Origin: Malacoraja senta
Lineage: Eukaryota
Assembly (NCBI GenBank): GCA_038087875.1
Contig: CM075989.1
Location: 21,826,001 to 21,890,000, forward strand
DNA length: 64,000 nucleotides
Direction of reading: 5' to 3'
The notes beneath the pieces were generated by a model that saw nothing but the letters and a program-made list of their open reading frames with translations, was not told where the DNA came from and searched no databases. Shown one piece after another: positions 1,838 to 64,000 of this stretch. Position 1 is the first letter of the stretch. The number at the start of each line of letters is the position of its first letter. The translations under genes and the position numbers were made by a program.

Positions 1838-1965
1838 CTGAAGAATGGTCTCGACCCGAAATGTCACCTATTCTTTTTCTCCAGAGATGATGCCTGACTA
1901 GTTGAGTTACTCCAGTACTTTGTGTCTATCCATGATATAACCCAGCATCTGCAGTTTCTTCTGAC
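1838..1965 (+). mobile_element. Short Penelope-derived element starting at a degenerate hammerhead-like motif
   Basis: CTGAAGAATGGTCTCGACCCGAAATGTC followed by the family tail (GAGTTACTCCAG...CAGCATCTGCAG), matching the sequence downstream of the GIY-YIG remnant at 53626-54335. Confidence 0.75.
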
Positions 1966-2061
1966 AAATTTCTTCCCTCATTGATTTCACCATGCAGAGA
2001 ACCAGGTTGCTATTGTGACCAAATTCAGAAATCCACTTTTCCCATTATATATTTTTTAGAT

Positions 2062-2280
2062 TAATTTAGTTTAGAGATACAGAGCAGAAACAGACCATTC
2101 GGCCCTCCGGGTCCGCACCAACCAGTGATTCCCGCACATTAACACTACCCGACACATACCAGGGACAATTTTACATTTTACATTTAGACCATGCCAATTA
2201 ACCTACAAACATGTATATCTGGAGTGCGGGAGGAAACCGATGATCTCAGAGAAAACCCACGCAGGACATGGGGAGAACGT
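2062..2280 (-). mobile_element. V-SINE, 5'-truncated
   Basis: Reverse complement of the SINE tail and V-domain; (TTTAG)n terminus on the left. Confidence 0.8.
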
Positions 2281-3633
2281 TCCTATAATTTAATTCCTCT
2301 GGGTAGACTCAATTCACACTTTGTCTTCTAGAAGTTAGAAAATTAATTATACTTGCTTTAAATATTCAGTATTGTCTGACTCAATAAAATTGTCGAATTG
2401 ATCAATTCATAACAGAAAGGAAGGAATGCTTATATTTTAAGTGCCACACTTATTCAAAATCAGGCTTTGTTAATTCCTTTTCTAATTTGTCTGAAAAGGT
2501 GTTGCCAAAAATGTATTCAGAAGGAAACTCAGGTTTTGACTGGATGATAAGAAGGTTGGAGGTCAAATGTTGATCAAAGGTCAAAGTTGGTAAGGGCTGG
2601 ATGTCAGACTAAGTGATCATTTCGTTTAGTTTAGAGATACAGTGCCTCGGTCCACCGAGTCCGTACCGACCAGCGATCCCCGCACATTAACACTATCCTA
2701 CACACACCAGGGACAATTTACATGTAGATGAAATATGATGCTCCATGGCCAAATGAAGTGGCACCACCAGTTCCTGGAGTATTAATGAAGTTAATATTGA
2801 TAATTGTTATCTCATTCAGTTCAGACTTGACAGGTTGCAGATGCTGAGAGATCAAAAGTAAAACAATGATAATATTCAGTGTCATTCCACCCAGAGAGCC
2901 CATCAAACACTAACACCTTTTATTCATATACAGTGGAAAATTCATTTTGGCAACCACAACAAAGGGCAAAATGAGCAAATATTTTTTTAATTGGATCTGA
3001 GCAATAGCGTTCATATTAATTTTCAAATATAATCAAAACAAAAATCACACCCGTCCAAATGTCCTTCCCAAAGCACTAATCAGGAAGTTCCTTTATGTCA
3101 CTTTGTGCTTTGAGAGCAGTCAGTAAAAATGATCGGATTTTATTGTTTGCACTCTGTATTGTAGTAAGTAGCACTTACGATGTGTGGCTGGCAGGATTGT
3201 GTGCCTGAGTAGCTCGGGAATACACAATCCCACATGTATTAAGAACGAGGAGAAAGATCAAATCAACAGGCCCCCCTTCTTTCCTGTTCTGTTATTCATT
3301 AAGATCATGGCAGAGTTTTACAGTAAATTGCATTAGATGTGGGATTCAAACACACACCCTGTAAATAGAGACCCAGAGACACTAACCCTTAGTGAAGGCA
3401 AGCATTATCAACCTTTCAGTATGGTTCCTCGAACCACACGACCATTCACACTGAAGCCAAGGTGATCTTCATTCCTGCACTTGTAATTGTAAAAGGCTAG
3501 ACCAAGGGCTGGGCCAGAATAACATGATCTCCCTCCACACCTGACAACCTGAGAAGCCTCCAAGGTAGGGTATTTTGCTTGCTCATGAACTTGTGCCCCC
3601 ACCACCCTGAACCCACTCACACCCTGCACTTCC

Positions 3634-3952
3634 ATCAGGCTAGAGGTACAGAAGTGTGAAAACGCACACTTCCAGATTCAGGGACAGTTTCTTCCCAGCT
3701 GTTATCAGACAACTGAACTGTCCTATCAACAACTAGAGAGCCGTCTAAACTCATTTGGAGACCCTCGGACTATCTTTGATCAGACTTTACTGGCTTTATC
3801 TTGCATTCGATGTTATTCCCTTATCATGTATCTATAAACTGTGGACGGCTCGATTGTGATCATGTATTGTCTTTCCGCTGATTGGTTAGCACGCAACAAA
3901 AGCTTTTCACTGTACCTCGGTACACGTGACAATAAACTCAACTCAACTAAAC
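3634..3952 (+). mobile_element. Rex1/Babar-like LINE 3' end
   Basis: Degenerate RT C-terminus (RYRSVKTH..SRFRDSFFPAVIRQLN-like), then a 3' UTR with the TGTACCTCGGTACA stem, GACAATAAA and a (CTCAA/CTAAA)n tail. The same UTR occurs on - at about 8368-8595 and 54020-54265. Confidence 0.65.
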
Positions 3953-4126
3953 GAAAAGCCCCTCTCCAACAACCCTCAAATTCTAGATGGCTCACCGAGC
4001 ACGATAAAGAACAGAAGTCCTCAACTATGTGATCTCTTCACATTGGTCCTTGGCAGTGTTCCTACTCGATAACTCACTCTACTCAGATGCCCCCATTTGC
4101 TGCACAATTTCCCAGCCGCAGACCTC

Positions 4127-5900: not shown

Positions 5901-7221
5901 GATAATAGCACAGCTCTGCTTCATTTACTTGACTTTTGAAGAATGCGACAAATTCTGCTCTTTTGTTGATCTATCTAGCAGCAAGAAAGAATGCAAGTTT
6001 AAATAGTTAAAGTGGAATGAGGAATGCGCGGTGGAATGTATAGAAAAACGAGAGGCCTGCTGACATTTGATTTTAGTATCATCGCTGGGCCTCACTCAAA
6101 TGGTCCCGGCATGTTGCCTTATAGAGAAAGGTCAGTAGACAATAATTCTTTGTTCTGAATCCCAGAGTAACAGTGAAACAAATATGTCCATCTCTAATTT
6201 GTTCCTAATCAGATGTGTTTGGTCTTTATTTCAAGTGCCTGTAACTACCACAAGTCAACCTATTAGAGTATTTGTCATCGCTGCATGCCATTATTCAACT
6301 TTGCAATGCCAAACTAAAAACTAAAAAAAATTTTGTCCTTGAGGAAGCTTGCAAAATATGTGGATAAACTCACTCAAATTATACAGAGCGTATAATAGGA
6401 TACTGTGATAATAACGTGTTTTAATAACTCAGGTATAAACTCTACAAACGCAATTCCGATTCTCCACGAATTTAGAAAGCGGCAAATTATTCAGGAAGCA
6501 ATTAGCAGTATACAATTTATTCTTTTACAAGATAATAGGCACTTGACAGTTTAGGAGCTGTATTCCCAGAAGTTTATATTAATCCAAAAATTGATTTGAA
6601 TCAAGAAAAATTCTAAAAATCAAAGTTAATTAGATTTTTGACTACTGGAGTGGCAGCTAATTATATTTTACAACTGCTGAATCAAAAACAAAAGTGTCCA
6701 TTATTGTTAAACCCATATAATGGCATCATAATCCTCGGGCCCAAATAAAATGAAGTTGCAACATATTAATACTTAAGCTTCAGAGCGTATCATTTCTGAG
6801 AGAGCTGCACCACGTAAAGGCAGATGTAAAACCGTCATTTACAGTACATCTGATGAGCCTTCTAATTAACTGAACTATTTACAGCGCTGTGGTCCTCTAC
6901 AACCAGTTTCTCCATTATCTTGACAGTCAACAAACTAGTCCCATTACAGCAAAGCAGATCTAATGCCCCAGGCAAAGCTGTTTGGTACTGCAAATTGTCT
7001 GAGGATAAAAGCCAGTGCAATAATCAGCTGTTCTCAGCATTATCAAAACACAACATTTCCCAGACCGTACCTGAAGCTTCTTCCACACAGCCATCGGGCT
7101 ATCAAACACTACAGCCTCCAAATAAGCTCGGAATAACATTGACTTGGGAGCATTGGTTTGTCTTTTTGCACTATTATTGTTTGTATTGTGTGTATGTAAG
7201 TATGAGTTTAAGTATGTATGT

Positions 7222-7630
7222 AACATTCAAAGTAACGTTAGCAAATTTGCAGATGACACAAAGCTGGGTGGAAGTGTGAACTGTGAGGAGGATGCTCTGA
7301 GAATGCAGGGTGACTTGGACAGGTTGGGGGAGTGGGCAGATGCATGGAAGAAGCAATTTAATGTGGTTAAATGTGAGGTTATCCACTTTGGTAGCAAAAA
7401 AAGGAAGGCAGATTATTGTCTAAATGGTGTCAAGTTGGGAAAAGGGGAAGTACAACGGGATCTGGGGGGTCCTTGTTCATCAGTCAATGAAAGTAAGCAT
7501 GCAGGTACAGCAGGCAGTGAAGAAAGCGAATGGCATGTTGGCCTTCATAACAAGAGGAGTTAAGTATAGGAGCAAAGAGGTCCTTCTGCAGTTGCACAGG
7601 GCCCTAGTGAGATCACATCTGGAGTATTGG
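7222..7630 (+). mobile_element. CR1-clade LINE RT fragment (frameshifted)
   Basis: SKFADDTKLGG...LQGDLDRL.EWA..W...FNV.KC.V.HFG and LVRSHLEY motifs split over ORFs 7144-7563 and 7424-7675. Confidence 0.9.
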
Positions 7631-7669: not shown

Positions 7670-7947
7670 ATGTAGGAAGGAACTGCAGATGCTGGTTTAA
7701 GCCGAAGATAGAGACAAAATGCTGGAGTATCTCAGCGGGACAGGGAGCATCTCTGGAGAGAAGGAATGGGTGATGTTTTGGATCGAGACGTCTGAAGATC
7801 TAGACTGCTCTAGTCTGAAGATCGAGACGTCTGAAAATCTAGACTAGTCTGAAGAAGGGTCTCGACCCAAAACGTCACCCATTCCTTCTCTCCGGTGATG
7901 CTACCTGTCCCGCTGAGTTAGTCTTGCACTTTGTGTCTACCTTCGGC
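7670..7947. mobile_element. Penelope-derived inverted pair (arms about 7670-7790 - and 7849-7947 +)
   Basis: Two family arms in inverted orientation meeting at the hammerhead-like motif, with a 26-bp local duplication between them. Confidence 0.8.
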
Positions 7948-8927
7948 ACACTATCAGTTTTGGGATGTGCTGAGATTCAGCATTCGATTGTGAACTTTTT
8001 GCACAGCACTTCGGTGTGGAAAAGCAGCGTGTGTATTTGAGACATCCAGCACCATGACATCCACCCGTGAAAGTGTAAGTGCAACCGGGACCCATCTCTG
8101 GAAGTGTAACGCTGCTGGTGTCTTGCGAGATCTTGTGACTCAGTGTAGAATGGGGGTCAGGAAAAGTCAGTGTGGTTTTATGAATAGATCTATTGTCTGA
8201 ATTGTCGCCATCTGTATCACTGATCCCAACACACAAAACATTTAAAAAGACAAGAGTCTAAGAGGTCATTCTAACGGTAAAATAACTGAAAGCGCTGCAG
8301 AAATGTGGTCTGTAAATGACTGTTGTTGGGTTTATACAGGACATTCAGAATCTTGTGAATATCTCAGTTTCAATTCAGTTTATTGTCACGTGTACCGAGG
8401 TACAGGGAAAAGCTTTTGTTCCGTGCTTTCCAATCAGAGGAAAGACATGATTACAACTGAGCATTTACAGTGTCTAGATACATGATAAGGGAATAACGTT
8501 TAATGCCAGAAACATTTGATCAAGGATAGTCTGATGGTCACCAATGAGGTCGATAGTAGTTCAGTACTGCTCTCTGGTTCTGGTAGGATGACTCAGTTTA
8601 GTTCTACTTTGAAATCTTCACATATATATATCTAATATATTTCTCGGGAGATGCTGGCTGACCTGCTGAGTTACTCCAGCACTTTGTGTCTATCTTTGGT
8701 ATAAACCAGCGTCTGTAGCTCTTTGTTTCTACACTAAGTTGTTGATTATGTTGGCTGCTTTTCCAAGGCAGTGTAAAGTGTAGATGGAGTCAATGATGGG
8801 AGGTCTGGTCTGGACTGGGCTACATCTAAAACTCTCAACAATTTAAGAAGTTAACAAGTATCTGAATGAAGCGCTTGTATTGTTGAGCTTTGGAAGACCA
8901 GTCTATCTTGGATATTAACTTTAGCTC

Positions 8928-9929
8928 CATAGATACATAGATACATAGAAAATAGGTGCAGGAGTAGACCATTCGGCCCTTCGAGCCTGCACCGCCATTC
9001 AATATGATCATGGCTGATCATCCAACTCAGTATCCCGTACCTGCCTTCTCTCCATACCCCCTGATCCCCTTAGCCACAAGGGCCACATCTAACTCCCTCT
9101 TAAATATAGCCAATGAACTGGCCTCAACTACCCTCTGTGGCAGAGAGTTCCAGAGATTCACCACTCTCTGTGTGAAAAAGTTTTTCCTCATCTCGGTCTT
9201 AAAGGATTTCCCCCTTATCCTTAAGCTGTGACCCCTTGTCCTGGACTTCCCCAACATCGGGAACAATCTTCCTGCATCTAGCCTGTCCAACCCCATAAGA
9301 ATTTTGTAAGTTTCTATAAGATCCCCTATCAATCTCCTAAATTCTAGCGAGTATAAGCCAAGTCTATCCAGTCTTTCTTCATATGAAAGTCCTGACATCC
9401 CAGGAATCAGTCTGGTGAACCTTCTCTGCACTCCCTCTATGGCTATAATGTCCTTCCTCAGATTTGGAGACCAAAACTGTACGCAATACTCCAGGTGTGG
9501 TCTCACCAAGACCCTGTACAACAGCCGTAGAACCTCCCTGCTCCTATACTCAAATCCTTTTGCTATGAAAGCTAACATACCATTCGCTTTCTTCACTGCC
9601 TGCTGCACCTGCATGCCTACTTTCAATGACTGGTGTACCATGACACCCAGGTCTCGCTGCATCTCCCCATTTCCTAATCGGCCACCATTTAGATAATAGT
9701 CTGCTTTCCTGTTTTTGCCACCAAAGTGGATAACCTCACATTTATCCACATTATACTGCATCTGCCAAACATTTGCCCACTCACCCAGCCTATCCAAGTC
9801 ACCTTGCAGTCTCCTAGAATCCTCCTCACAGCTAACACTGCCCCCCAGCTTAGTGTCATCCACAAACTTGGAGATGTTGCCTTCAATTCCCTCATCCAGA
9901 TCATTAATATATATTGTAAATAGCTGGGG
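8928..9929 (-). mobile_element. CR1-clade LINE 3' end with uninterrupted RT C-terminal frame (9027-9863)
   Basis: 278-aa ORF with DDTKLGG, LVRPHLEYCVQFWSP, RGHSL and FFTQRVVNLWNSLP; 3' UTR GGGCCGAATGG-type stem and (CTATGTAT)n tail; 5'-truncated. Confidence 0.95.
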
Positions 9930-11731: not shown

Positions 11732-12062
11732 TTGCGTTGTGGAATTATTTGCCACAGAAGGCTGTGTGGAGGCGAAGTCAATTGATATTTTTAAGGGAGA
11801 GATAGATAGATTCTTGATTAGTGCGGGTGTCAGGGGTTATGGGAAGAAGGCAGGAGAATGGGGTTAGGAGGGAGAGATAGATCGGCCATGATTGAATGGC
11901 GGAGTCGACTCAGTCTGAAGAAGGGTCTCGACTCGAAATGTCATCCATTCCTTCTCTCCAGAGATGCTGCCTGTCCTGCTGAGTTACTCCAGCTTTTTGT
12001 GTCTATCTCTGGCGGAGTAGACTAGATGGGCCGAATGGCCTAATTCTGCTCCTATCCCTTAT
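11732..12062 (+). mobile_element. CR1 3' end containing a 99-bp Penelope-derived insertion (11911-12009)
   Basis: CR1 tail split by the insert; flanking repeat TGGCGGAGTCGACT (11897-11910) / TGGCGGAGTAGACT (12010-12023). Confidence 0.85.
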
Positions 12063-13333: not shown

Positions 13334-14342
13334 CATAAACTTGCTCAAGAAGAGACAGATGAGGTGCTGAAATAATGGCCTACATTTTACAGAAGACACA
13401 ATAGAAAAAGTAACCACTTTGACTGCCCCTTGCACTCTAAAACTCACGGTAACTTTAGGATTTTCTCCACAGTTCACAGCGAAACGCTTAATTTTTTTTT
13501 CCAACTGATTCAGCTCTGCCCTACAGGCTGTGTCATTTCTCAACCACGATCAAGGGAAATCAGCTCAATTGGCAAATGTTTCTTTTTGCTTAATCAGTCT
13601 CACTTTAAATACTCTGTGGATGACATGGTCAGTGTGCATGTTTCATGGGACAGTAAGCCTCAATTACAGCTTAACCACCTCTGGCCCTATAAAGCACGTG
13701 GATCGTAATTACCTCATGCAAATATTCCACTTTATGATGGATTTTAAAATATTTTATGTTTCAAAAGTTCATGATCTTTCAACTCCTGCATTAATCTTAC
13801 TTTGATCTTTGTTTAGCCATCTGTAAAATGTTTTAAAGGTTTATGGCGGCACGGTGGCACGGCGGTAGAGTTGCTGCCTTACAACGCCGGAGACCCGGGT
13901 TCGATCCTGTCCATGAGTGCTGTCTGTACGGAGTTTTCTCAGGGTCTCGACCAGAAACGTCGCCTATTCCTTCTCACCAGAGACGCTGCCTCAGCCATTA
14001 AGTTTCTCCAGCATTTTTTGTCTACCATAGATTTTTCCAGCATCTGCAGTTCTTTCCTAAACCTGTATGTTTAGTTTAGTTTCAAGAAACAACGAGGAGA
14101 CAGGCATTTTTTCAGCCCATCGAGTCCCCGCCAACGAGCTATCCCTGCACACTAACACTATCCTACACACACGAGGGACAATTTTACATTTATACCAAGC
14201 CAATTAACCTACACACCTGTACGTGTTTGGAATATCGGAGGAACACACATGTCAACATGTAGTATGTAGATGGACCAGGGGAGCAAGAGATAGCCCACGC
14301 GGTCACGGAGAGAACGTACACACTCCATACAGACTACACCCG

Positions 14343-14861: not shown

Positions 14862-16102
14862 TAGTTTAACTTGGCTTCGTGCTCGGCACCGGCTTTGTGG
14901 ACTGAAGGGTCTGTTCCTGTGCTGTACTGTTCTGCGTTCGATGTCAAATCTCAACCACATTGCAGCAGGCGGAATACTTTCAATTACATTTCGAGGAGAG
15001 TATGTTTTTGTAAAGAACTGGAATGTTCCGCTGACTGAATTCGCCACTGGGCATTTTTTTCTTGGGCCCGCTCAGTTCAACCAGTTTACAATCAGGATTT
15101 ATTGATACCAAATGTGTCCCTGCTCATTAAATGAAAGATTGACAGGAGAGGGTTACGTGCCCTGCTGATGTTACCTGCACCCATGGTGTGGAGATTAAAT
15201 TAGTCATATATACTGCTGGCATTTAGGGCTGAAACATTGGAACAAAACGCAGATCAAATTGGGTGGGAAGAGCTGTTGGATCCAATTTTGGAAAGGGGAG
15301 TTCAGCTCTTCATAATCACGAACCTTGATGAACCTTCAGCTGACTATTGGTTTCCAAACGCTGAACGTACCCACATTGTTAACCCTCAGTGATCCGCTCT
15401 GCTTTATATAAAGCGGTAGAGTTGCTGCCTCACAGCGCCAGAGACCCTGGTTCGACCCTGACTACGGGTGCTGTCTGTACGGAGTTTGTACGTTCTCCCC
15501 GTGACCTGCGTGGGTTCTCTAAGGGGGTTCCGCTTTCCTCCTACCTCCCAAAGACATGCAGGGTTGTTTGGAAAATTGGCTTCTGTAAATTGTCCCTAGT
15601 GTGTAAGTGTATGGGTGATCGATGATCAGCATGGACTCAGTGGGCCGAAGGGCTTGATTCTGCACTGTAAAACTACACTACAGAAATAGAACGATTAATT
15701 TGTGGAAGTCCATTGCAAGAACTATTATTTGAAAGAAGAGAAACATATCAGAAATCTTCTCAAAATCTTCATATCTTTTTCTTCCATCTACATTTGCAGA
15801 TTTATTAGTTAATCATTTTTGTTTATTTTTGGTTAAGTTACAGTAGGTTTGGCTGCGGTCCTCTTTCTCACTTCATGTGCAAAATTCCTCAACCAATTTC
15901 TCAGACATAACCCTGGACGAAGCCTGACATTCCTCGGCTACCGAGTCCACACCACCAGCGATCCCCGCACATCAACAGTTCCTAAACAACATGTTACAGG
16001 GCAACATGTTTACATGGACATGTAGATCTTTGTGCAGTGGAAGCCTCCAGTAAATATAATCATCATCATTCTTCATTCAAAAGGAATATATGGTCATCAT
16101 TC

Positions 16103-16745
16103 GAGCGGTATGAATATTCACTTCTCTGACTCCAAGTAACCCTTGCTTTCCCTCTCTCTCCATCCCTCCCCCATCCTAGTTCTCTGACTAGTTTCACTGT
16201 CCCCCAGTTTTTATTTAATGACAGTATGCCTCGTTGTCATATGGAAACGAGGAAACACTTTTTCTCACAGAGAGTGGTGAGTCTGTGGAATTCTCTGCCT
16301 CAGAGGGCGGTGGAGGCAGGTTCTCTGGATGCTTTCAAGAGAGAGCTAGATAGGGCTCTTAAAAAATAGCGGAGTCAGGGGATATGGGGAGAAGGCAGGA
16401 ATGGGGTACTGATTGGGGATGATCAGCCATGATCACATTGAATGGCGGTGCTGGCTCGAAGGGCCAATTGGCCTGCTCCTGCACCTATTGTCTATTGTCT
16501 ATTGACACCTTCCCCTAAGCTAACAATGAACCATTCTACATCCTTTGAACTTTGTCTCCTTTGATCTCTCATTTTCACACCTTGCCCTTCCATATCTCGA
16601 TCTCTCCTTCTCACCTGACCCTCAGTCTGAAGAAGGGTCTCGACCCGAAACGTCACCCATTCCTTCTCAGCAGAGATGCTGCCTGTCCCGCTGAGTTACG
16701 CCAGCATCTTGTGTAAACAGCATCATCAGCAGTTCCTTCCTACAC
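16103..16745 (+). mobile_element. Penelope-like element 3' region with nested CR1 tail (about 16222-16504)
   Basis: Starts with an SGMNI.FS-like end of the GIY-YIG ORF, then a pyrimidine-rich spacer, an exact hammerhead-like motif at 16627-16654 and the family tail. Confidence 0.8.
16627..16654 (+). ncRNA. Predicted minimal type-I hammerhead-like ribozyme core (consensus copy)
   Basis: CUGAAGA-A-GGGU(CUCG)ACCC-GAAA-CGUC: conserved CUGANGA and GAAA boxes, stem II, palindromic ACGU stem III and a GUC triplet. Stem I is only about 2 bp. Confidence 0.6.
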
Positions 16746-17845
16746 ACTGGTCATCATATCTGTTCGTCCTGGACTCCATGACAGCGGAAGGAGATACATG
16801 CTTCATTGACAGAGAATCCAGTACAATTCTGGAGGAGCGATATCCCGAACCTTTCACTGCCAAGATGGTAGGAGGCCTGAAATTTGTTCTTGCCAAGGGC
16901 TATAGTGTCTGAGAAGGCACGGGACACAGTACATACCTGAGATACAACTCCACAGCCAGTGTCAGGGCCAGTTTTCACCCTGAAACTTTGGTGGCATCTC
17001 AACCCTTGAGAGGGCCTGAAAATGGGACAGAGAGAGACAGGAAGAGGAACGGGAGAGAGGGAGGAGGCAGGAAAAAGTACAGTCAGAAGGGGTGCGGAGA
17101 GAGGGAGAGCTACGGAGACAGGGACAGAGGGAGGGGGTGAAAGCGAGCAAGGAGGGGGAAAGAATGACAATTAAATAAAAGAAAAGACTCACTTAAAAAA
17201 TAAATTGATCACCAGCCAACACTGTGGGAGATTTACTAACAGGACGAGTCGAGGCCTTCGGGCTGAATGAGGGCTTGTTCATTGACTCATTGTAAATTGT
17301 CAATGAGAAGCAATAAAAATATTGCTGAGAGTCAGAGCTGTAAACACTTGTACTGCACATTGACATGGGGCAAGCAGGATTTTAGCACACTCCAATCCTT
17401 CATTTTGAATCCTCAGCTCGATTTATAATCAGACGATCATTGGAAATAGATTTTAATGCACAATATGTTAAGATAATTGCCTGCATTGGTTGAAATATTG
17501 CTTTTGAATTAGTTTTTAAAGTTATATTTGAATATTTTGTCATTGACCGTGTATTCATTCCATGGTTTAGACTGTTTCTGGTGACTTTAGTCACTTCCAG
17601 TGAATGTTAACTAATGACTTTATTACTTTCAATTCATTGCAGATGCAGACATCTTCTCTTGCCCAGTCTTGTTGCTCAATGGAACAGGCATTATCAGCCA
17701 AACTATATTGTACCAAACATTTCATTATTTTACCTCTCCCTGCTGTGGTTCAGAAACAAAACTCTGCCAATCTGAACAGATTACATGCATGAGTTCACTA
17801 TATTTCAGAGGGCTTTGTAGCCAATTAGGTTTGCGTGCAAAGTCT

Positions 17846-18235: not shown

Positions 18236-19006
18236 GGCGTTGGGAGACTGGTGTCTGGAGAAGGGTCTTTCCCCTGACTCTAATCTGAAGAAGGGTCTCG
18301 ACCCAAAACGTCACCCATTCCTTCTCTCCAGAGATGCTGCCCGTCCCGCTGAGTTTACTCCAGCTTTTTGTGTCTATCTGTGGTTTAAACCAGCATCTGC
18401 TGTTCCTTCCCACACATCACTTCACTTTCCATTCTGCAATCATGCAGATGTGTCTTTAAGGCACACTGAGACAGATGTTTACAAGAGGAAAAATCATAAT
18501 TCAAGACAGTCAATTTATGGGGTGCTCGATGAAGTTTGGAAAAGGGATGAGTAATGCAATGGGATAACCTGATCTGTTCTTAACGGGAAAAGTATGTTCC
18601 AACCACCCCCTGTGTGAAATGAGGTAAAACAGCTGATGATCCCACACATCTCTAAGTTGTTCCACTGTGACATTGTGTTGTTTGTAAATGACTGCTGCAC
18701 TCTTAGAATTATATCACAAAGCTGCACTTTTTGGGTTTCGTTAACAGCACGAATTATATTTTCTCCGAGATTTCTGTTGGAGATTGATAGATTCTTGATT
18801 AGTACGGGTGTCGGGGGTTGTGGGGAGAAGGCAGGAGAATGGGGTTGGGTGGCAAAGATAGTTCAGCCATGATTGAATGGCGGAGTAGAATGGCATAATT
18901 CGACTCCTAAGGAATATGAACTTATGAAATATAATTTTGCCAAACGCCACAGATCTGAAAATAAAAGCGGACTCTGTGACATTACTTTTGGCAGATGTCA
19001 GCATCT

Positions 19007-41080: not shown

Positions 41081-41116
41081 GAGGCATTTTCAGTCTTCAG
41101 CATGTTGTGTCCATCA

Positions 41117-48552: not shown

Positions 48553-48752
48553 NNNNNNNNNNNNNNNNNNNNNNNNNNNNNNNNNNNNNNNNNNNNNNNN
48601 NNNNNNNNNNNNNNNNNNNNNNNNNNNNNNNNNNNNNNNNNNNNNNNNNNNNNNNNNNNNNNNNNNNNNNNNNNNNNNNNNNNNNNNNNNNNNNNNNNNN
48701 NNNNNNNNNNNNNNNNNNNNNNNNNNNNNNNNNNNNNNNNNNNNNNNNNNNN
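48553..48752. other. Assembly gap (200 N)
   Basis: Run of N. Confidence 1.
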
Positions 48753-48756
48753 CGGC

Positions 48757-48957
48757 GCTCGTGCCTCACTGGCGGCGGCTGTGCTCGTGCCTCACTGGTG
48801 GCGGCTGTGCTCGTGCCTCACTGGCGGCGGCTGTGCTCGTGCCTCACTGGCGGCGGCTGTGCTCGTGCCTCACTGGCGGCGGCTGTGCTCGTGCCTCACT
48901 GGCGGCGGCTGTGGCTGCGGCCGTGCCGCACTCGTGCCTCACTGGCGGAGGCTGTGC
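48757..48957. repeat. 26-bp GC-rich minisatellite running into the gap
   Basis: Unit GCTCGTGCCTCACTGGCGGCGGCTGT, about 6-7 visible copies. Confidence 0.95.
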
Positions 48958-49536
48958 GGTAGGAAACGTTTTTTGAACAGTGTAGGTTTTATTTTAGCAC
49001 CGTGCGGTGTTGGGAACAACGCCGCACGGCCCCGGAATTGTGCGTTTGACCGAGTGCGCGGTCTATGGCGGCCCAGGAGCGGTAGATTCTTCCTGTTTCG
49101 CCGCCAATGACCGCAGACTCGTGAGACAGGCCTTTTAGCTACAGACCCGCCCATTTTTGGAATGGGGGGGGGAGAACCGGAGGCACGGTGGCGCAGCAGA
49201 TGAGTTTCTGCCTTACAGCGCCAAAGATCCCGGTTTCGATCCTGACTATGGGTGCTGTCTGTACGGAGTTTGTACATTCTACCCGTGACCACGTGGGTTT
49301 TCTCCAAGTGCTCCGGTTTCCTCCCACATCGCAAAGACATACAGGTTTGTAAGTAAACTTGTTGTAATTAGGAGTTAATTAGGTCAATTTGCACGCAACA
49401 CAAAAGCTTTTCAATGTACCTTTTCAAATGTGACAATAAACCAAACTAAAACAAACTAAAAAATAACTAAATAATTGGCTTCTGTAAATTGCACCGAGGT
49501 CTAGTGTATGGGTGATCAATGGTCAGCATGGACTTG

Positions 49537-49843
49537 TGTAGGAAGGAACTGCAGATGCTGCTTTACACCAAAGATAGCCACAAAATGCTGGAGTAACTCA
49601 GCGGGACAGGCTGCATCTCTGGGGAGAAGGAATGGGTGATGTTTTGGGTCGAGACCCTTCTTCAGACTCAATCCTTCGGAATGAGCCCTTCTTGGCCCTT
49701 CGGCCCATTGAGTCTGCACTGACCAGCGATCCCTGAAACGTCACCCATTCCTTCTCTCCAGAGTTGCTGCCTGTCCCGCTGAGTTACTCCAGCATTTAGT
49801 GCCTATCTTCGGTATAAACCAGCATCTGCAGTTTCCTTCCTAC
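49537..49843. mobile_element. Penelope-derived inverted pair
   Basis: Arms about 49537-49668 (-) and 49734-49843 (+), separated by an inverted SINE fragment. Confidence 0.8.
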
Positions 49844-50937
49844 ATATTGTGTCCCTTCCACAGATGCTGCCTGACCCGCTGAGTTACTCCAGCACTTTGT
49901 GTATTACCCTTCTGAGTTAGTTGTAATAATTTTACTTCCAGCTGACCCCCCATGTTCTATGGTGAAAGCATGGGGCTAAATGATGCCAAAAATATATATT
50001 TTCACAGGCAAAGTGATCAAGATAATAAAGATTGGATGGTAAAATAAGCTATCGTGGAATCATGAACTCGATGGGCCGAAGGGCCAGTTTCCAAGCTCTA
50101 TCTCTAAACCAAACCAATCTGCAGATTCAGGGGAACTATTGGCGAGCTTTCCAGCAGGGCAGGTCCTGCAGATTGTGTGTTGCTAAAGACATATTTGCTA
50201 TTCCAGTGCTAAGAGAAATGAAAGATGTATTTGCTCTAGCAAGGCAGGTGAAGGGAGCAGCCAAGGTCACCGCCTGTCACCAGGTGCTGTATTTGAGTAG
50301 CTTTGCCCTTGTTTCCACAACACCACCCATAAGCAACAGCGCAGTAAATCTATTGTCATTAAACATTGAGAAGCTCGTTTCTGTTGGCAGAGTGCCCACG
50401 TCATGAACTTTGTTGGCATTCCAAGGAGCACACAAGGCTGACCAGCGCTTGTGATGGGGCTCCTGCATAAAGAAGTGCAGTTTTCTTTCACCCTTATTAA
50501 TTCTGCTTCTTTCAACGTATTAATTCAAAACCGTATGCGAGGCTGTGACCCGGCTGTGTTCCAAGCTATCTGATTATTAATTGTATTTTTAACTAATTGT
50601 TGCTCTCTGGGGCTTTGCTCCCTCAATGGCATTTTTGTACAAGGACCAGGAGAGCAGATTGACGCCATCTACACAATTATTATGACAGCAGAAATCATTG
50701 CTGTACTCTTTGGCTGTTGCCGTTCAAGAAAACTAAGCCGCTTAAGAAAGAACCGCAGATGCTGGAGAAATCGAAGGTAGACAAAAAATGCTGGACAAAC
50801 TCAGCGGGTGAGGCAGCATCTATGGAGCGAAGGAATAGGTGACCTTTCGGGTCGAGTGTTTCTCCAGCATTTTTTGTCTACCCAAGAAAACTAAGTTGTT
50901 CTTTTCGCTGTGTTTTTCGGTATTTGGTAAATTCATC

Positions 50938-51514: not shown

Positions 51515-52240
51515 TTTTATGAGGGTGTTGCCGGGACTCGAGGGTCTGAGCTATTGGGAGAGGTTGAGTAGGCTGGGACTCTATTCCTTGGGGTGCAGGA
51601 GGATGAGGGGTGATCTTATAGAGGTGTATAAAATCAGGAGTGGAATAGTTCGGGTAGATGCTATGGCCTCTGGTCCTGGACTCTCCCACTAGTGGAAACA
51701 TCCTCTCCACATTCTCTCTATCCAGGCCTTTCACTACAGGCATGCGGACAGTGGAATTGGCAGAACAGTGTGTAACATCATGAAAGGAACATGTCGGGTA
51801 GGAGCACAAAGTCTCTTGCCCAGAGTAGGGGAATCGAGGACCAGAGGACATACTGTAGGTTTCAGGTGAAGGGGAAAAGATTATATAGGAATCTGAGGTA
51901 GACAAAAATGCTGGAGAAACTCAGTGGGTGAGGCAGCATCTATGGAGCGAAAGAAATAGGCGACGTTTCGGGTCGAGACCCTTCTTCAGACTGAAGAAGG
52001 AATCTGAGGGGTAACTTTTTCACACAAAGGGTGCAGGGTGTATGGAACAAGCTGCCAGAGGAGGTAGTTGAGGCAGGGATTATCCCAACGTTTAAGAAAC
52101 AGTTAGATACGTACATGGATAGGACAGGTTTAGAAGGATAAGGGCCAAACGTCGGCAGGTGGAACTGGTGTAGCTGGGACAAGTTGGTTAGTGTGGGCAA
52201 GTTGGGCTAAAGGGCCTGTCTCCACGCTGTATGACTCTAT
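51515..52240 (+). mobile_element. HER1-like CR1 3' end with nested insertions, including a Penelope-derived piece (51899-51997)
   Basis: FMRVLPGLEGLSYWERLSRLGLYSL..RRMRGDLIEVYKI; the insert is flanked by AGGAATCTGAGG at 51887-51898 and 51998-52009; exact hammerhead-like motif at 51962-51989 (-). Confidence 0.85.
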
Positions 52241-53625: not shown

Positions 53626-54335
53626 CTGGGCCTCCTCCAATGTCAGAGTGAGGCCAAACGCAAATTGGAGGAACAGCACCTCATATTTTGCGTGGGCAGT
53701 TTACACCCCAGCGGTATGAACATTGATTTCTCTTTCGAGTAACCCTTGCATCCCCTCTCTCTCCATCCCTCCCCCACCCAAGTTGTACTAGTTTCAAAGT
53801 CGTCTTGTTGAGTCTCGTTGTCTGTGACTGTTTTTCACCTCGCCAACAGCTAACAATGGCCTGCTTCCTATTTAATCGTTACTTTGCATATCTTTCATTC
53901 ATTTGTGCTATATCTCTCTATATCACTGTCCCGTTTCCCTTTCCCCTGACCTTCAGTCTGAAGAAGCGTCTCGACTCGAAACCTCACCTATTCCTTTTTT
54001 CCAGAGATGTTTCTGTTTCATTTTCAGTTCAATTTAGTTTATTGTCATGTGTACCGAGGTACAGTGAAAAGCTTTTGTTGCGTGCTAACCAGTCAGCAGA
54101 AAGACAATACATGATTACAATCGATCCATTTATAGTGTATAGATACATGATAAGGGAATAATGTTTAGTGCAAGGTAAAGCCAGCAAAGCCCTATCAAGG
54201 ATTGTCCGAGGGTCACCAAAGAGGTAGATAGTAGTTCAGGACTGCTTTCTGGTTGTGTAAGGATCATTCATTTGCTGAGTTACCCCAGCTTTTTGTGTCT
54301 ATCTTTGGTTTAAACCAGCATCTGCAGTTTCTTCC
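53626..54335 (+). mobile_element. Penelope-like element 3' end (GIY-YIG C-terminus, spacer, hammerhead-like motif, tail)
   Basis: 53626-53742 translates to LGLLQCQSEAKRKLEEQHLIFCVGSLHPSGMNIDFSFE*; motif at 53958-53985; Rex1-like tail nested at about 54020-54265. Confidence 0.85.
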
Positions 54336-56454: not shown

Positions 56455-56895
56455 GTGCAGGGGAAAAACTGCAGATGCTGGTTTAAATCGAAGACAGACA
56501 CAAAATGTTGGAGTAACTCAGCGGGACAGGCAGCATCTCTGGTGAAAAGGAATGGGTGACGTTTTGGGTGGAGACCCTTCTGCAGACTGATGTCAGGGGA
56601 GTGGGCGGTACAGAGATATGGAAGTGTATTGGTAAGGAGGGGTAAGGTGTGAAAACAGGGCCAAGGGAATGGAGAACAGGGAATATGTAGAATAGATCAT
56701 TGTTAGTTGGGAGAAGGTAACAACAAAACAAACAGAGATAATATGTAGTCGGAGACAGTAAGACCGGTCGGAGAACTGGGAAGGGGGAGGGGATGGAGAG
56801 AGAGGGCAAGCAAGGTTGACGAAGTTAGATAAGTCAATGTTCATACTGCTGGGGTGGAAGCTGCCCAAGCAAAATATGAGGTGCTCTTCTTCCAA
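56455..56895 (-). mobile_element. Penelope-like element 3' end
   Basis: EEEHLIFCLGSFHPSSMNIDLSNF followed by spacer, degenerate hammerhead-like motif (about 56558-56585) and tail. Confidence 0.85.
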
Positions 56896-57184
56896 TATAT
56901 ATCTTATATACAGTATGTGGTTTAGTTTAGTTTAATTTAGAGATACAGCGTGGAAACAGGCCCTTCGGCCCACCCTGAGTCTGTGCCAATCAGCGATCCC
57001 CACACACTAACACTATCCTACACTCACTAGTCAAGAGTCAAGAGTATTTAACTGGCATATGTCCCAGTTAGAACAATTAAATTATGTCTTGCAGCAACAC
57101 AACGGAATATGTAAACAGTGCACTGTGAATAATATAATAAACGAGAAAAGAAAATTCAGTGTGTCTGTGTATATATGAATAAAT

Positions 57185-58407: not shown

Positions 58408-59010
58408 TTAGTTTGCGGGGATCGCTGGTCTGTACGGACTCGTGGGCCAAAGGGCCTGTTTCAACGCTGTAGCTCGAAACTAAACAAACCTAGACAAAAA
58501 GGTCTCTAATTAAAATGAAACCGCACTGATTTAGAATTGCCGCAAACATATCTTGAAGGAGGAAATGGAACTGCTATGCTGATGCAGCTGGGAGCTTTTG
58601 CTTTTTAGTCAGACTCCAGGTGAGTCGCTGAGATAGAATACCAGAAACATTACCCCACATCTAACCTTGCTATATTTAATCTGCAACACTGCCAACCCTC
58701 ATTACTCTCCAAGCGAATCTTACACAGTAGCTAGCCAGGAATCTCAAGGTGGTGAGGAAGTGGAGCCAAGGGAATAGATAAATAACCCTTTAAGTTTACC
58801 TTGAGACCAGGAGTTGGATCTTGTTTCGAGATTTCTTTCATAATTGTGAGCATTGGGAACAGGGAACAGCTTGATACAGGCAGTGGACAGAAAACATGAA
58901 ATGTGTTGCATGCCTGAGTACTGAAACCCTATCCAGCTCTGCATACATAATGTTCCTCTGAACGTCGCCTTGCTCGGTGAAAGTGAACAGAATATCCTTT
59001 GGAGGGTGTT

Positions 59011-59160
59011 GCAGCATCTATGGAGCGAAGGAAATAGGCAACGTTTCGGCCCGAAACATTGCCTATTTCCTTCGCTCCATAGATGCTGCCGCACCCGCTG
59101 AGTTTCTCCAGCATTTTTGTCTACCTTCGATTTTCCAGCATCTGCAGTTCCTTCTTAAAC
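59011..59160. mobile_element. Penelope-derived subfamily B fold-back
   Basis: GCAGCATCTATGGAGCGAAGGAAATAGGCAACGTTTCG-GCC-CGAAACATTGCCTATTTCCTTCGCTCCATAGATGCTGC near-perfect palindrome; a second subfamily B pair lies at 59541-59713. Confidence 0.85.
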
Positions 59161-60139
59161 TAAACGTATACTTCCCTACTGAAGTATAGTCTGCAAGGTG
59201 GTGCAGCAGTAGAGTTGCTGCCTTACAGCGCCAGAGACCAGGGTTCGATCCTGACTACGGGTGGCGTCTGTACCGAGTTTGCACGTTCTTCCTGTGACTG
59301 CGGGTGCTCCGGTTTCCTCCCACATTCCAAAGACGTGCGGGCTTCTTGGTTAATTGGCCACTGTAAAAATTGACCATAGTGTGTGGTGTTGGGTGATTAT
59401 TGGTCGGTGTGGACTCAGTGGGCCAAAGGACCTGTATCTCAGCCCAACTTGTCCACACCGGCCAACATGTCCCAGCTACTCTAGTCCCACCCACCCGCGT
59501 TTGGCCCATATCCCTTTAAACCTGTCCTATCCATGTACCTAGGAAATAGGCAACGTTTCGGGTCGAAACCCTTCTTCAGACTTCAGTCTGAAGAAGGGTT
59601 TCGACCCTAAACGTTACCTATTTCCTTCGCTCCATAGATGCTGCCACACCCGCTGAGTTTCTCCAACACTTTTGTCTACCTTCGATTTTCCAGCATCTGC
59701 AGTTCCTTCTTAAATGGAATATCCTTTGGACTGGATGTTGCAATGGTAATTATCCTGAGAAGGTCTGGGATCGTGAAAGCCAACAGCAAGGCAGGAAGTT
59801 GCTGCTGGAGTGGCCCAACATATACCCAGGGGGCATTCATCCCAACAAGCTGCACTCAGATCAACATGCGCACACTCAGTGTCTCCATTTACTTGAATGG
59901 AAAGGAGAGGCCTCACAATTAACCAAGAAAAAACACAAACATAGAAAATAGGTGCAGGATTAGGCCATTCGGCCCTTCGAGCCATCACCCCCATACAATA
60001 TGTTCGTGGCTGATCAACATCTGATAGGCCTGGCATTTTTGGAGAGAAAGTCAAGAGTTACATTAAGCTGAAAATACTAATAAAACAACATATCTATTAA
60101 AAAATGCTGGCTTGTTTATATCCAATTATAATTATTAAC

Positions 60140-60680: not shown

Positions 60681-61723
60681 TGGCATTATCTGTATGACTG
60701 TATGGAAAGCCTCTTCATCAGTAAGGAGATAAAAAGTGAGGTAGAAATGTGTATTATCTTTAAGGCTCAAGAAGATGTATTGGTCTGTGGTGGGTCCTTG
60801 CACAGACCACCTGGGTAGTCCCTGAGAAACAACCACAGGCAGATGATTAGAACATTGAGGCAAGGTCTGTTATGTGTTAGGAGATACACGGAGACGGGGT
60901 TAGAAGCAAAGATCAAACCGTCCCTTTCAAATCTGAGACCACTCCTAATAGTTGTTGTACACAAGCCCGCTTACGGTTACAAAAAGGGGGAGACGGGGTC
61001 CCAGCATTGACAGAGGAGATGAATAGGAAACCCCTGTTTATTGTGGCAGTTTTCCCTGACATCCCCGATGTTTATAAGCAGCTGCCTGCGCTAATGACAT
61101 CCCGATAACTGACACTCCTCAGCATACCGTCCAGAATGCAGTCCCTCAAGTTCTGTTAACTGTGCAGAGTCGGAATGTGTTGTTAGTTTGTGTGTGTGTG
61201 TGTGTCGTTGTGGTTTGTGACAACTCTCAAATTGGCCCTTCAGGAACCATGCATAACGAATGTGTGGAGCATTTAATACCTTCTAGTGTCCTGTAACGTC
61301 ACGTGTCAGGAATCCGTTTTTAAACTTTTTTCTTTACGACCACCAAAAGTTGTAAATGAGTGATCTAACTATATTATCCAGGCAAAGAAAAACGAACTCT
61401 AGAAGCCAAACTGGTATTTACTCAGGAAATACCGCAGGCTGGTGGAATCTTTCAGTTTCTGTGGAGTAATTTCATTCATTTATTTTTTGCTTCAGAGGGA
61501 TGCAATGCACTGATGCCATTATGTGGTAGTCAAGAGGAAAGCTGTAAAATGTGCGATGTTTTATTATTTTAAGGTCATGCATGAATAGACAATTTTAAAG
61601 CAATCAACAAAGAGGTGAAACAAAAGACAGGGACTGGCAATGCGTTTAAAATTCTGTTGCCAATTGGCCTCCCTGCAAATCTCTGATACTCATTGCCTTT
61701 AGCTGTTAACTATTTTTGAAGAA

Positions 61724-62192
61724 GCACAGTGGCGCAGCGGTAGAGTTGCTGCCTTACACTACCGCCAGAGACCCGGGTTCCATCCATACCATGGATGCTG
61801 TGTGTATGGAGTTTGTACGTTCTCCCTGTGACCTGTGTGGGTTTTCTCCAGGAGCTTCGGTTTCCTCCCACACTCCAAAGACGTAGGATAATTGGAGTTT
61901 ACACAAGATGGGGTGAGAATCCAGGAATCGGAGGTGCAAAGGGACTTGGGAGTGCTGGTGCAGAATTCCCCAAAAGCTAGTCAGCTAGTGGAGTCAGTAG
62001 TAAAGAAGGCAAACTCAACGCTAGCATTTATTTCAAGAGGGCTTGTGTACAATTGCCTAGGTATAATTGCAAATTGTCCCTAGTGTGTGTAGGATAGTAT
62101 TAGTTTGTGGGGATCGCTGGGTGGTGCGGACTCAATGGGCCGAAGGGCCTGTTTCCACGCTGTATCTCTAAACTAAACTAAACTAAACTAAA
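61724..62192 (+). mobile_element. V-SINE with internal CR1 fragment (about 61890-62045)
   Basis: EVQRDLGVLV...VKKANSTLAFISRG inside the SINE. Confidence 0.8.
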
Positions 62193-63404
62193 ACAGACCA
62201 TTAATATTTTTTTATTGGGCTAAATGATTTTAAAATATAAATCTAACAGAACAACACAGTACGTCAGAATCCTAAAAAGTTATTTTTCTTAGTGCATGAA
62301 TTTGAAAGAGAGACATTTTGGGAGTGATTGTAGTTCATTGTTGAAACATGGAAATGCAGATGCTGGATTACAAATAAAGAGACACAAAGTGTTGGAATAA
62401 CTCAAAGGGTCAGGCAGCATCTCTGGAGGACATGGTGAGGTGACATTTCGGGTCTGAAGAAGGGTCCCGGGACCTGAAGTGTCACTTATCCGTGTTCTCC
62501 AGAGATGCTGCTTGGCCCGTTGAGTTACTCCAGAGCCTTGCATCTTTTCTTGGTTAATTCTTGCTTGGAACCAAGTGATGGAACTATTGTACGGAAGATA
62601 AAGAGTTATAGGTTTAGGCAAGCAAGCCTCTTCCTGAAGTGTAAATACCACGTGATGTGACAAATGTGTGCACAGTTTATATTGAAATCTTTTGTTTCCA
62701 AAATACTCTTGGTGAGCTGAGCACACTTTTTTAAAAATCAAATCTACAAAGTGAACTGACTTCCTTTCATTGATCAGCCTAAGGACATTACAATAGCAAA
62801 CTTGTATTTTCCACACATTTTTTTAAAGACGAAGAAATATGTTTTGAGAATTACATTGGAACGGTTGTTAATGGGATTTCCCATTGTGCTGCCTCAAAAG
62901 ATGGCATCTACCATCATGTACCTCACTATCTGGGCCATGCCATCTTCCCACTGCCAACATCGGGCAGGGGGTGCAGAAGTCCCAAATTTGATAAGATTGG
63001 ATTCAGGAATGGTTACTTTCTTACACCCTCAGGTTCATGAATCGAGATGCATAACCCGAATCCTACCTCCGTAACAGAACACCATGGACCACCTCCTGCA
63101 TGGACTTGTTTTCTAATTGCATTTTGCCCTAAAGTCTTGTTTTTGCAGATTTATTTTCTTTTCATTGTCTTGCATAAGTTACGTACGATTTGTTTTTTTG
63201 TCATGTTGTCCAAGTTTGTTTGCCTGTGATGCAGCTGCAAGCAAGATTTCCACTGGACCTGTACGTCACTAGACTTGTACATATGACAATAAATTCAGAA
63301 TGTACTGTAGAAACAACGAACTGTAGATGCTGGCTAATACACAAAAGGTCACTGGAGTAACTCAGCAGGTCAGGCAGTATCTCTGGAGAACATGGATAGT
63401 CATC

Positions 63405-63822
63405 GAGCAATACAGTGTGGAAACAAGCCCCTCAGCCCAACTTGCCCACACCGGCCAACATGTCCCAGCTACACTAGTCCCACCATGTTTGGTCCATATC
63501 CCTCCAAACCTGTCCTATCCATGTACCTGTCTAATTGTGTCTTAAACATTGGGATAGTCCCAGCCTCAACTACCTCTTCGAGCAGCTTGTTCCATACACC
63601 CACCACTCTTTGTGTGAAAAAGTTACCCCTCAGACTCCTATTAAATCTTTTTCCCTTCACCGTAAACCTATATCCTCTGGTCCTCGATTCACCTACTCTG
63701 AGCAAGAGACTCTGTGCATCAACCCGATCTATTCCTCTTCTGATTTTATACACCTCTAGATGATCACCCCTCATCCTCCTGCGCTCCAAGGAATAGTGTC
63801 GCAGCCGACTCAACCTCTCAAT
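63405..63822 (-). mobile_element. HER1-like CR1 3' end
   Basis: ORF 63469-63843: ERLSRL..YSLERRRMRGD.LEVYKI...FFTQRVVGVWNKL. Confidence 0.9.
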
Positions 63823-64000
63823 AGGTGACGATGTTAAGGTCAAAGAAGGGTCTCGACCTGAAACATCACCTATCCATGTTCTCCAGGGACGCTACCCAAC
63901 CTGATGAGTTACTCCAGCACTTTGTGTCCTTTTGCCAATATATTCAACTTGACTTGACATTAGGCTATGTCATAGAAGCAAAATACTCTGGTACAAGAAG

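Follow-up and report, generated by a model that had tools for sequence, protein, structure and literature searches.

Probable minimal hammerheads at the front of short 3'-terminal stumps of a likely Neptune-type Penelope-like element in 64 kb of Malacoraja senta DNA

We analysed a 64-kb stretch of the Malacoraja senta genome (assembly GCA_038087875.1, contig CM075989.1, positions 21,826,001 to 21,890,000; hereafter the window, whose own coordinates are used throughout), in which a first-pass annotation had noticed about 30 hammerhead ribozyme-like motifs dispersed through Penelope-derived repeats. These motifs are very probably minimal type I hammerheads that front short stumps from the 3' end of a Penelope-like element (PLE), which carried an endonuclease and was likely of the Neptune type; most of the stumps are decayed and likely inert. 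The motifs fit the published PLE hammerhead consensus, three of them lie downstream of genuine PLE open reading frame (ORF) ends, and 12 units carry target duplications.

Hammerhead motifs and the repeat module that carries them

Shuffled and simulated sequences provided the null for motif counts in the window. The 28-mer motif occurs exactly at the three sites named in the first-pass annotation, 16627-16654 (+), 45868-45895 (-) and 51962-51989 (-). Twenty matches were found at up to 3 mismatches, against none in 100 shuffles, and 31 near copies at up to 7 mismatches, against none in 20 simulated sequences; 31 motifs in 64 kb agree with the earlier estimate of roughly one per 2 kb. Twenty-four of the 25 degenerate coordinates listed earlier have a copy at most 2 nucleotides (nt) away, but the remaining one (41061) marks only half of a copy (41060-41085, -), which a later insertion has interrupted. 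The copy at 62454, which has a 2-nt insertion, was picked up by an nhmmer profile search, and copies at 13934, 30713, 31696 and 45909 were absent from the earlier list. Our own hammerhead descriptor gave 8 matches in the window, compared with a mean of 0.13 in 30 simulations when stem I had to have at least 1 base pair (bp) and 0 when it had to have at least 2 bp.

The motif is the front of a repeat module of ~100 or ~130 nt, which is the 3' end of an endonuclease-bearing PLE. A module profile built from 27 copies detected 58 pieces at E<=1, of which the 55 at E<1e-3 were used for counts (32 on the + strand, 23 on the - strand, 5,400 bases covered). Positions in the module and its stumps are numbered with C3 of the hammerhead core as 0. 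By this numbering 17 pieces end at +84 to +106 and 30 at +118 to +136, with none between and 8 ending earlier, where ends taken from local alignments may lie a few bases too far out. Contigs of four public sequencing runs likewise exit a module copy at two points 29 nt apart, and the two end classes, ~30 nt apart, reflect an optional PLE tail. Diagnostic bases sorted 50 of the 55 pieces into three subfamilies with 36, 5 and 9 members, and the core is identical in the majority lines of all three. Copies linked to an ORF and stumps both occur in subfamily A, and the minority variants of the younger subfamily C (C17 to U, A1.1 to G, loop changes, and stem II U-A to U-G) all preserve the structure. 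Two public runs from coded organisms yielded 144,818 and 162,668 matching contigs, which are not copy numbers, and the queried stretch included ~45 nt of another repeat.

Fit to the minimal hammerhead consensus

The PLE minimal hammerheads of PMC4209133, whose numbering we follow, have one additional base after position 9 and before 10.1, pair G10.1 with C11.1 and are palindromic at 15.2-16.2. The type copy at 16625-16656 (+) has the same order of elements. Stem I is formed by 16625-16626 (5' strand) and 16655-16656 (3' strand), and is followed by core C3-A9 (16627-16633), an extra base (16634), and a 4-bp stem II with a 4-base loop (16635-16638 with 16643-16646). Then come G12-A15.1 (16647-16650), which carries the GAAA, a palindromic, loopless two-pair stem III (16650-16653) and C17 (16654), so that the predicted cut lies at 16654|16655. 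The unpaired base after position 9 is thus 16634, and the G10.1-C11.1 pair is 16635 with 16646. The core CUGANGA...GAAA...NUH occurs in type I order in the three subfamily majority lines and in seven of the 26 motif-spanning copies, which retain stem II and stem III as well. Among 29 copies, the palindromic 15.2-16.2 position is C-G in 20, U-G in 3 and unpaired in 6. Stem I is 2 bp long (3 bp in two copies), with 72% of its cells paired and a low predicted pairing probability.

The structural reading of the first-pass annotation (4-bp stem II, palindromic minimal stem III, 2-3 bp stem I and an extra base) therefore holds. Its concern that the extra A and the short stem I were defects does not, as both are traits of the published PLE family, and several PLE motifs in the PMC4209133 alignment have a 2-bp stem I. 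Published PLE motifs cleave poorly, either only as multimers (PMC4209133) or with the help of the element's protein (PMC11167929). The motif described here fits this kind, and its cleavage is a prediction from the sequence.

The parent element

The ORF ends annotated near 16103, 53626 and 56895 are genuine and in sense orientation, each upstream of a motif. They encode PSGMN-type C-termini at ~16107 (+), 53626-53742 (+) and 56895-56821 (-), and the corresponding motifs follow at 16627, 53958 and 56585. In all three, 216-234 nt separate the ORF stop from C3 if a later insertion of 263 nt in the first copy is left out of the count. That copy is an insertion at 16091-16757 (+), in which the stop at 16137-16139 is followed by a pyrimidine-rich spacer (interrupted by another repeat at 16243-16505), the hammerhead, and the module with its tail to ~16747. 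Because a 10-nt target duplication (16091-16100 and 16748-16757) encloses both the ORF end near 16103 and motif 16627, the two belong to one insertion. The second longer piece, at 53626-54013 (+), consists of a GIY-YIG-type C-terminus (53626-53742) and a decayed hammerhead at 53958, and is cut off at 54013; a candidate intron runs from GT at 53739-53740 to AG at 53955-53956 (+, 71% pyrimidine). The third, at 56455-56896 (-), carries the ORF end 56895-56821, a decayed hammerhead with C3 at 56585 and a module with tail, and its candidate intron extends from GT at 56820-56819 to AG at 56588-56587 (-, 74% pyrimidine). The upstream ORF ends and the consensus fit together bear out the earlier assignment of the motifs to PLEs and to minimal type I hammerheads.

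The 38-amino-acid ORF end at 53626 gave 42 protein matches. The four of these that were looked up are gene models from Rhinoraja longicauda (83% identity to that end), Hypanus sabinus (two) and Leucoraja erinacea, and by these protein relatives the host is likely a skate or ray. A word-index protein search with a 45-amino-acid ORF end gave no match. Four of the nine relatives scanned have weak GIY-YIG hits below the Pfam curated cut-off. The endonuclease region of a relative matches P0162, an 893-amino-acid protein with reverse transcriptase (RT) and GIY-YIG domains, and the telomerase-like RT present in the P0162 ORF is thus reached through that region. A window piece at 41119-41271 also matches the P0162 protein (44% identity, E 9e-08). 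A CX2-5CxxC zinc-finger linker between RT and endonuclease marks the Neptune and Nematis clades (PMC8557442). Such a linker is found in P0023, P0030, P0037 and P0162, and it is of the Cx4CxxC type in three of six relatives compared. The parent element is likely a Neptune-type PLE, as judged from these protein relatives.

Several of the relatives (P0002, P0011, P0019, P0023 and P0037) are skate or ray gene models in which PLE endonuclease ends are fused to host or long interspersed nuclear element (LINE) sequence. P0002 was rejected as a query, since it returned only neuromedin-U receptors, the gene model having absorbed a PLE end; the neuromedin-U receptor 1 model is ~80 amino acids longer than its orthologues. 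PLE ends in host gene models are likely annotation artefacts, the alternative being exon capture. Two further endonuclease C-termini in the window, at 34081-34152 (-) and 40440-40583 (-), are each followed by a pyrimidine-rich spacer that differs from the spacers of the main family, and the sequence immediately beyond has no hammerhead match; they possibly belong to older PLE families.

Insertion signatures

Twelve units have confirmed target duplications, 8-15 nt long. Ten came from a scan of 41 intervals and two were read by eye, and only 2 of 298 random intervals reached the score of 10. Of the 41 intervals, some of them overlapping or rough-ended, 29 showed no clear flanking duplication. 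Flanking repeats at 1826 (8 nt) and 63306 (11 nt) are weak taken alone. Stumps also occur in inverted pairs, and 10 of the 18 close inverted repeats in the window are made of the module.

Alternative explanations for the motifs and their repeats

Several observations weigh against reading the motifs as PLE hammerheads from a Neptune-type parent. In the predicted fold, the pairing probability of stem I was 0.00-0.09 in five of the six copies tested, the hammerhead was not the minimum-energy fold for most copies, and an imposed dimer lay 13-15 kcal/mol above the best two-strand fold. The stem II covariation that had been put forward as a check was not found above shuffles: in 29 copies, the observed share of paired cells was reached in 242 of 500 shuffles and the covariation score in 323 of 500, and a single cell has a two-sided change, the rest being one-sided, although a test on 29 closely related copies has low power. 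A search for the degenerate motif in metagenome and viral contigs gave 0 matches and hence no outside copies for covariation. An Rfam scan of the window gave no match to a hammerhead family up to E 5, and its best matches, to microRNA models, fell on fold-back pairs and simple repeats with scores well short of the gathering thresholds. As for the parent, the 38-amino-acid end gives no direct alignment to full-length P0162, both a PLE reverse transcriptase and a full-length element are absent from the 64-kb window, and the Neptune call rests on the zinc-finger linker of the relatives, as the window pieces stop short of the linker.

If the hammerhead likeness had arisen by chance in an ordinary repeat end, the missing covariation and Rfam match and the unstable predicted fold would be expected. 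But the PLE consensus is matched at each of the 11 core bases, at the extra base, in the G-C pair with which stem II begins and in the palindromic stem III. The motif also stands at the place expected within a PLE end, and the subfamily C minority variants are structure-preserving throughout. A chance origin is highly improbable. It is also unlikely that the ~100 and ~130 nt units form a non-autonomous family, resembling short interspersed nuclear elements (SINEs) or retrozymes, with its own source genes and PLE protein supplied in trans. Uniform size, a shared start region, target duplications and three subfamilies would suit such a family, and retrozymes have been proposed to derive from PLE terminal repeats (bioRxiv 10.64898/2026.07.22.740005). 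Yet ORF-linked long copies fall in subfamily A together with stumps, the 5' junctions vary between copies (23 of 48 truncated pieces start further in), and a tandem array of the unit, the defining trait of animal retrozymes, is missing. Repeat finding detected no tandem array of the module in the window, and a tandem retrozyme array was rejected on this ground.

Decay of the copies and ribozyme activity

We compared conservation in the hammerhead core with that in the downstream module. Among core cells outside CpG sites, 15 of 354 (4.2%) deviate from the majority, versus 116 of 1,897 (6.1%, p=0.22) downstream when 14 subfamily-diagnostic columns are dropped; with these columns kept, 264 of 2,445 downstream cells are changed (10.8%, p=4e-5 versus core). 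G12, which lies in a CpG, is changed in 10 of 41 cases, against 71 of 340 at all CpG sites. The proposed test of core invariance thus came out in two parts, in that the core is the same across the three subfamily majority lines but individual copies show no extra conservation of it. A core held between source lineages and not within inserted copies looks like a dead-on-arrival pattern. The copies appear mostly dead or decayed and likely inert, judging from their sequences, and a large population of active ribozymes is unsupported. The earlier wording "hammerhead-derived loci" is apt, as the motifs are real minimal-hammerhead copies on decayed PLE pieces.

That the host keeps the dispersed copies as working ribozymes, for example to cut intronic or read-through RNA, is accordingly very improbable. 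Seven or eight copies in the 64 kb still fit the descriptor, and the module occurs in contigs of public runs guessed to be RNA, both of which would be compatible with such a role. Against it, the core is no better preserved than its neighbours and G12 is lost at the CpG rate. Dimer partners are absent as well (no two intact copies stand in tandem in the window), and a motif in a head-to-head pair would be trapped inside a long hairpin.

Pile-up of 5' ends at the hammerhead edge

Seven copies extend upstream of the motif, and the other 48 pieces are truncated. Of these, 25 start at -3 to +3 and 23 at +4 to +73. Just 2 of the starts lie close to the cut site, and hammerhead cutting was therefore rejected as the source of the stump 5' ends. 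The binomial test of the pile-up (p=4e-11) overstates its significance, as fold-back arms and split pieces are not independent. Among 24 motif-bearing stumps, 17, 16 and 13 agree with the long copies at -1, -2 and -3, 8 at -4, 13 at -5 and 2-8 from -6 to -14. The flanks at -40 to -7 of 14 stumps outside fold-backs score 5.4, the same as random DNA (5.4), versus 12.8 for long copies, and target duplications abut the stump start in several units. Because agreement drops past -3, the flanks resemble random sequence and the duplications abut the starts, the pile-up is not a clipping artefact. In addition, the loose-end consensus in contigs of three public runs loses agreement right after -3.

Junctions on the complementary DNA (cDNA) strand at 7849, 45895, 29125, 18285, 41077 and 51989 reach -3 or -2 and then re-copy the last bases or snap back, as an RT would be expected to do on running out of template or meeting a hard block. 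Several stump starts have additional G bases in front of them, but few were counted and fold-backs confound some of the cases. The likely cause is either an RNA 5' end or a block at a splice site near -3.

A reading that we hold only tentatively is that the element RNA begins at -3, at an initiator-like site, in which case the stumps would be strong-stop cDNAs and the hammerhead would make up the first ~33 nt. The fall from 13 of 24 stumps agreeing at -3 to a background of 8 of 24 at -4, the unrelatedness of the flanks, the failure of the public-contig consensus right past -3, the re-priming and snap-back junctions and the extra G all point this way, and the bases around -3 are similar to an initiator consensus. 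This is tempered by the G counts being small and fold-back-confounded, and by 13 of 24 stumps agreeing again at -5. Moreover, in the Drosophila virilis Penelope the hammerhead is immediately preceded by the 3' end of a 75-nt terminal-repeat intron, with the start site 46 nt upstream of that intron (PMC2377424), a layout similar to the one here. Such an intron with its upstream start favours the possibility, to which we give equally guarded credence, that RT stalls at a 3' splice site whose AG is -3/-2, the obstacle being a splicing intermediate or a protein that sits either on that site or on the 5' edge of the ribozyme. A pyrimidine-rich spacer of 215-233 nt does begin with GT at the ORF stop and end with AG at -3/-2, just as the D. 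virilis intron ends at helix I. A joint from 56590 to 56821 fits the intron (1 contig each in two of four runs, among the 15 best-supported joints shown), but it could be a deletion at a short word shared by both ends, and that the runs are RNA is a guess. An exon start would also predict ends at -1, and a lariat block ends further upstream, rather than at -3, and the window holds no intron-less copy except one fold-back look-alike.

By analogy with known PLE biology, the element protein would nick target DNA and initiate reverse transcription internally, at either of two sites that lie 85-130 nt past the core. The cDNA would usually halt at the hammerhead 5' edge and then be joined to the target or snap back to give an inverted arm, and would only rarely extend across the intron-like spacer upstream and reach the ORF. 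Selection would keep the ribozyme only in parent elements, where it would cut weakly after C17 as a dimer or with protein help, and this cutting would not set the stump ends. That few stump ends (2 of 48) lie at the cut site is in line with the Anolis PLE, which uses uncut RNA. A fuller and rather doubtful version of a start at -3 is that the ribozyme would be the first RNA fold of the transcript and would cut off its own capped 5' end; with the internal RT start 85-130 nt downstream, strong-stop cDNA would be the commonest product, integrated as is or after snap-back.

Individual insertions

Coordinates of units made of inverted copies are given without a strand. The head-to-head fold-back at 45791-46042 is bounded by a 12-nt target duplication (45791-45802 and 46029-46040) and carries an intact hammerhead at 45868-45895 (-), a junction that halts twice at -3, and a forward arm that runs from +9 and has a tail. 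The compound insertion at 58990-59730 has a single 14-nt target duplication (58990-59003 and 59717-59730) around a fold-back at 59004-59159 centred in stem II and another at 59541-59714 centred at -3, the latter with an intact hammerhead (59552-59579, -). These are two separate subfamily C fold-backs with different centres and other repeats between them. In the head-to-head pair at 7671-7958 (arms 7671-7789, -, and 7842-7958, +) the spacer holds repeated short re-copies that end at -3/-2. This junction (7790-7848) contains repeated re-copies of the hammerhead front and stem II, and Tandem Repeats Finder calls a 16-nt array there. The arms of the pair at 31634-31859, one with a tail and the other without, meet at -3 with a 5-6 nt spacer. 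The other head-to-head pairs are 32096-32304, which belongs to subfamily B and has decayed cores, 62345-62563, which is joined via a short shared word at the hammerhead, and 49535-49845 (arms 49535-49672, -, and 49732-49840, +), which has a piece of another repeat between its arms. A stump with a short inverted arm lies at 50725-50895 with a 13-nt target duplication (50725-50737 and 50883-50895), and a longer copy at 27757-28232, with C3 at 28026, passes the descriptor and has an inverted arm at 27757-27840. In Rfam, the fold-backs 59000-59101, 59545-59622 and 7730-7919 score as weak microRNA precursors.

Among the single stumps, the one at 51887-52009 (-) has an intact hammerhead (51962-51989), a 9-bp snap-back at -3 and a 12-nt duplication (51887-51898 and 51998-52009). 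Some stumps lie in other repeats. The stump at 40566-41130 (-) sits inside an older PLE endonuclease ORF, whose halves are 41262-41116 and 40580-40440; it has a 15-nt duplication with one mismatch (41116-41130 and 40566-40580) and is itself split by two later repeats. The region 40440-41271 (-) thus shows three-level nesting, with the hammerhead stump in the old ORF and two later repeats in the stump. Another stump within a repeat, at 11897-12023 (+), has a descriptor-passing hammerhead at 11915 and a duplication matching at 13 of 14 nt (11897-11910 and 12010-12023). The subfamily C stump at 19977-20091 (-), with a 12-nt duplication (19977-19988 and 20080-20091), sits in the upstream spacer of 19791-19970 (-), a longer copy with C3 at 19898 that keeps its upstream pyrimidine tract.

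The stump at 23418-23568 (+) starts at +1 and has a tail and an 11-nt target duplication, and that at 24946-25070 (-) starts at +2, lacks the tail and has a 12-nt target duplication. A copy at 18267-18418 (+) reaches ~-20, where the front of the hammerhead has been briefly re-copied ahead of it, and a longer decayed copy occupies 45644-45782 (+, C3 at 45676). The stump with a tail at 1826-1969 (+) has the 8-nt flanking repeat. At 30574-30609 (+), a descriptor-passing hammerhead with a 3-bp stem I is present and the remaining module is absent. The stump at 23112-23209 (-) starts at -2 and passes the loose descriptor, and that at 26962-27092 (-) starts at -1 and has a tail and a broken core. Subfamily B stumps were found at 29117-29251 (+), with short re-copies ending at -3, and at 63832-63950 (+), with a broken core. 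Two stumps missing from the earlier list are 13934-14061 (+), which starts at +7 and has lost its core, and 30713-30817 (+), which starts at +3.

Other sequences in the window

A second abundant repeat of ~300 nt occurs at more than 30 places (e.g., 15412-15680, 59195-59440 and 56916-57030) and ends in short A/T-rich tandem units; it may be a tRNA-derived SINE. ARAGORN found no tRNA genes in the window. At 36644-36756, two 3' ends of this repeat form an inverted pair around an A/T-rich centre. The intervals 9027-9926 (-), 7129-7560 (+) and 21665-22678 (+) hold LINE-type RT fragments with weak RVT_1 matches, two such fragments in the window, and a 338-amino-acid frame with a weak zf-RVT match. 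Two GC-rich minisatellites are nearly perfect, 41470-41772 (37 nt x 8) and 48757-48913 (26 nt x 6), and the latter adjoins a 200-base run of N at 48553-48752.

Relation to known elements

Minimal hammerheads in metazoan PLE terminal repeats were described in 2014 by Cervera and De la Pena (PMC4209133). The motifs reported here share with them the type I layout, the extra base that follows position 9, a stem II that begins with a G-C pair, the palindromic loopless two-pair stem III, the short stem I and the U-rich upstream tract, as well as the location downstream of an ORF end and the dispersal of most motifs as single truncated copies. The species compared from the supplementary table and alignment of that study include no cartilaginous fish, and the 4-bp stem II and 2-bp stem I seen here lie at the short end of the published range. 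The 8 descriptor hits in 64 kb compare with ~4,000 per genome in coelacanth and ~9,000 in Xenopus, a comparison that sets one window against whole genomes and uses different descriptors.

Endonuclease-bearing (EN+) PLEs are known for inverted truncated copies, 30-40 nt tails, junction palindromes and 8-10 nt target duplications (PMC3846280, PMC8557442). Our insertions resemble these canonical elements (Arkhipova et al. 2013; Craig et al. 2021) in their 5' truncation, adjacent inverted copy, optional tail at one end, target duplications, palindromic inverted junctions and insertion into other PLE copies, and the skate and ray relatives share the zinc-finger linker before the endonuclease with Neptune and Nematis. 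They differ in that most insertions are only 100-250 nt long, and in that truncation and fold-back points cluster at the hammerhead 5' edge, a feature not reported in the passages of PMC3846280 and PMC8557442 that deal with such insertions. In the Anolis Poseidon element PAc (Frangieh et al. 2024; PMC11167929), two internal RT starts define the tail, the template is uncut RNA, no RNA ends lie at the cut site and the hammerhead is active only with the element protein. The two end classes and the scarcity of ends at the cut site may be likened to this, though PAc is of a different clade and its ORF starts inside the hammerhead. Here the ORF start is likely further on, because in the subfamily A majority line the first ATG downstream of the motif opens a frame that runs into a stop. 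The D. virilis Penelope (Schostak et al. 2008) has the 3' end of its intron abutting hammerhead helix I, as in our copies, whereas its intron is 75 nt with a mapped start and ours is a candidate intron of 215-235 nt from the ORF stop. Animal non-LTR (long terminal repeat) retrozymes form tandem arrays with a mean unit of 363 bp in a chondrichthyan (Li, Clavereau and Pollet 2026; bioRxiv 10.64898/2026.07.22.740005). They have in common with our repeats a type I hammerhead, a proposed origin in PLE terminal repeats and occurrence in cartilaginous fish (the one chondrichthyan genome sampled), but our copies are dispersed single or inverted stumps.

A literature search on Penelope and hammerheads in cartilaginous fish, with most subscription journals, Repbase, Dfam and Lunse et al. 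2016 outside its reach, found neither this family nor the pile-up at -3 described. Overall, the elements are of a known kind in what is likely a new host group, at very high density.

Implications

What the window adds to the known PLEs is a very dense family, likely of skates or rays, in which RT stops sharply at the 5' edge of the ribozyme. This touches the wider questions of the PLE replication cycle and of the role of the hammerhead in it. Since junctions are many, counting alone can test the template end, the formation of inverted arms and the use of cut RNA. The fold-back insertions, if transcribed, would form long hairpins and could feed small-RNA pathways. If the transcript starts at -3, one mechanism would explain the stumps, the inverted arms and the hammerhead load, and, were the window typical, the genome would hold hundreds of thousands of hammerhead-bearing loci. 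In that case the genome would record the RNA start of the element at every insertion.

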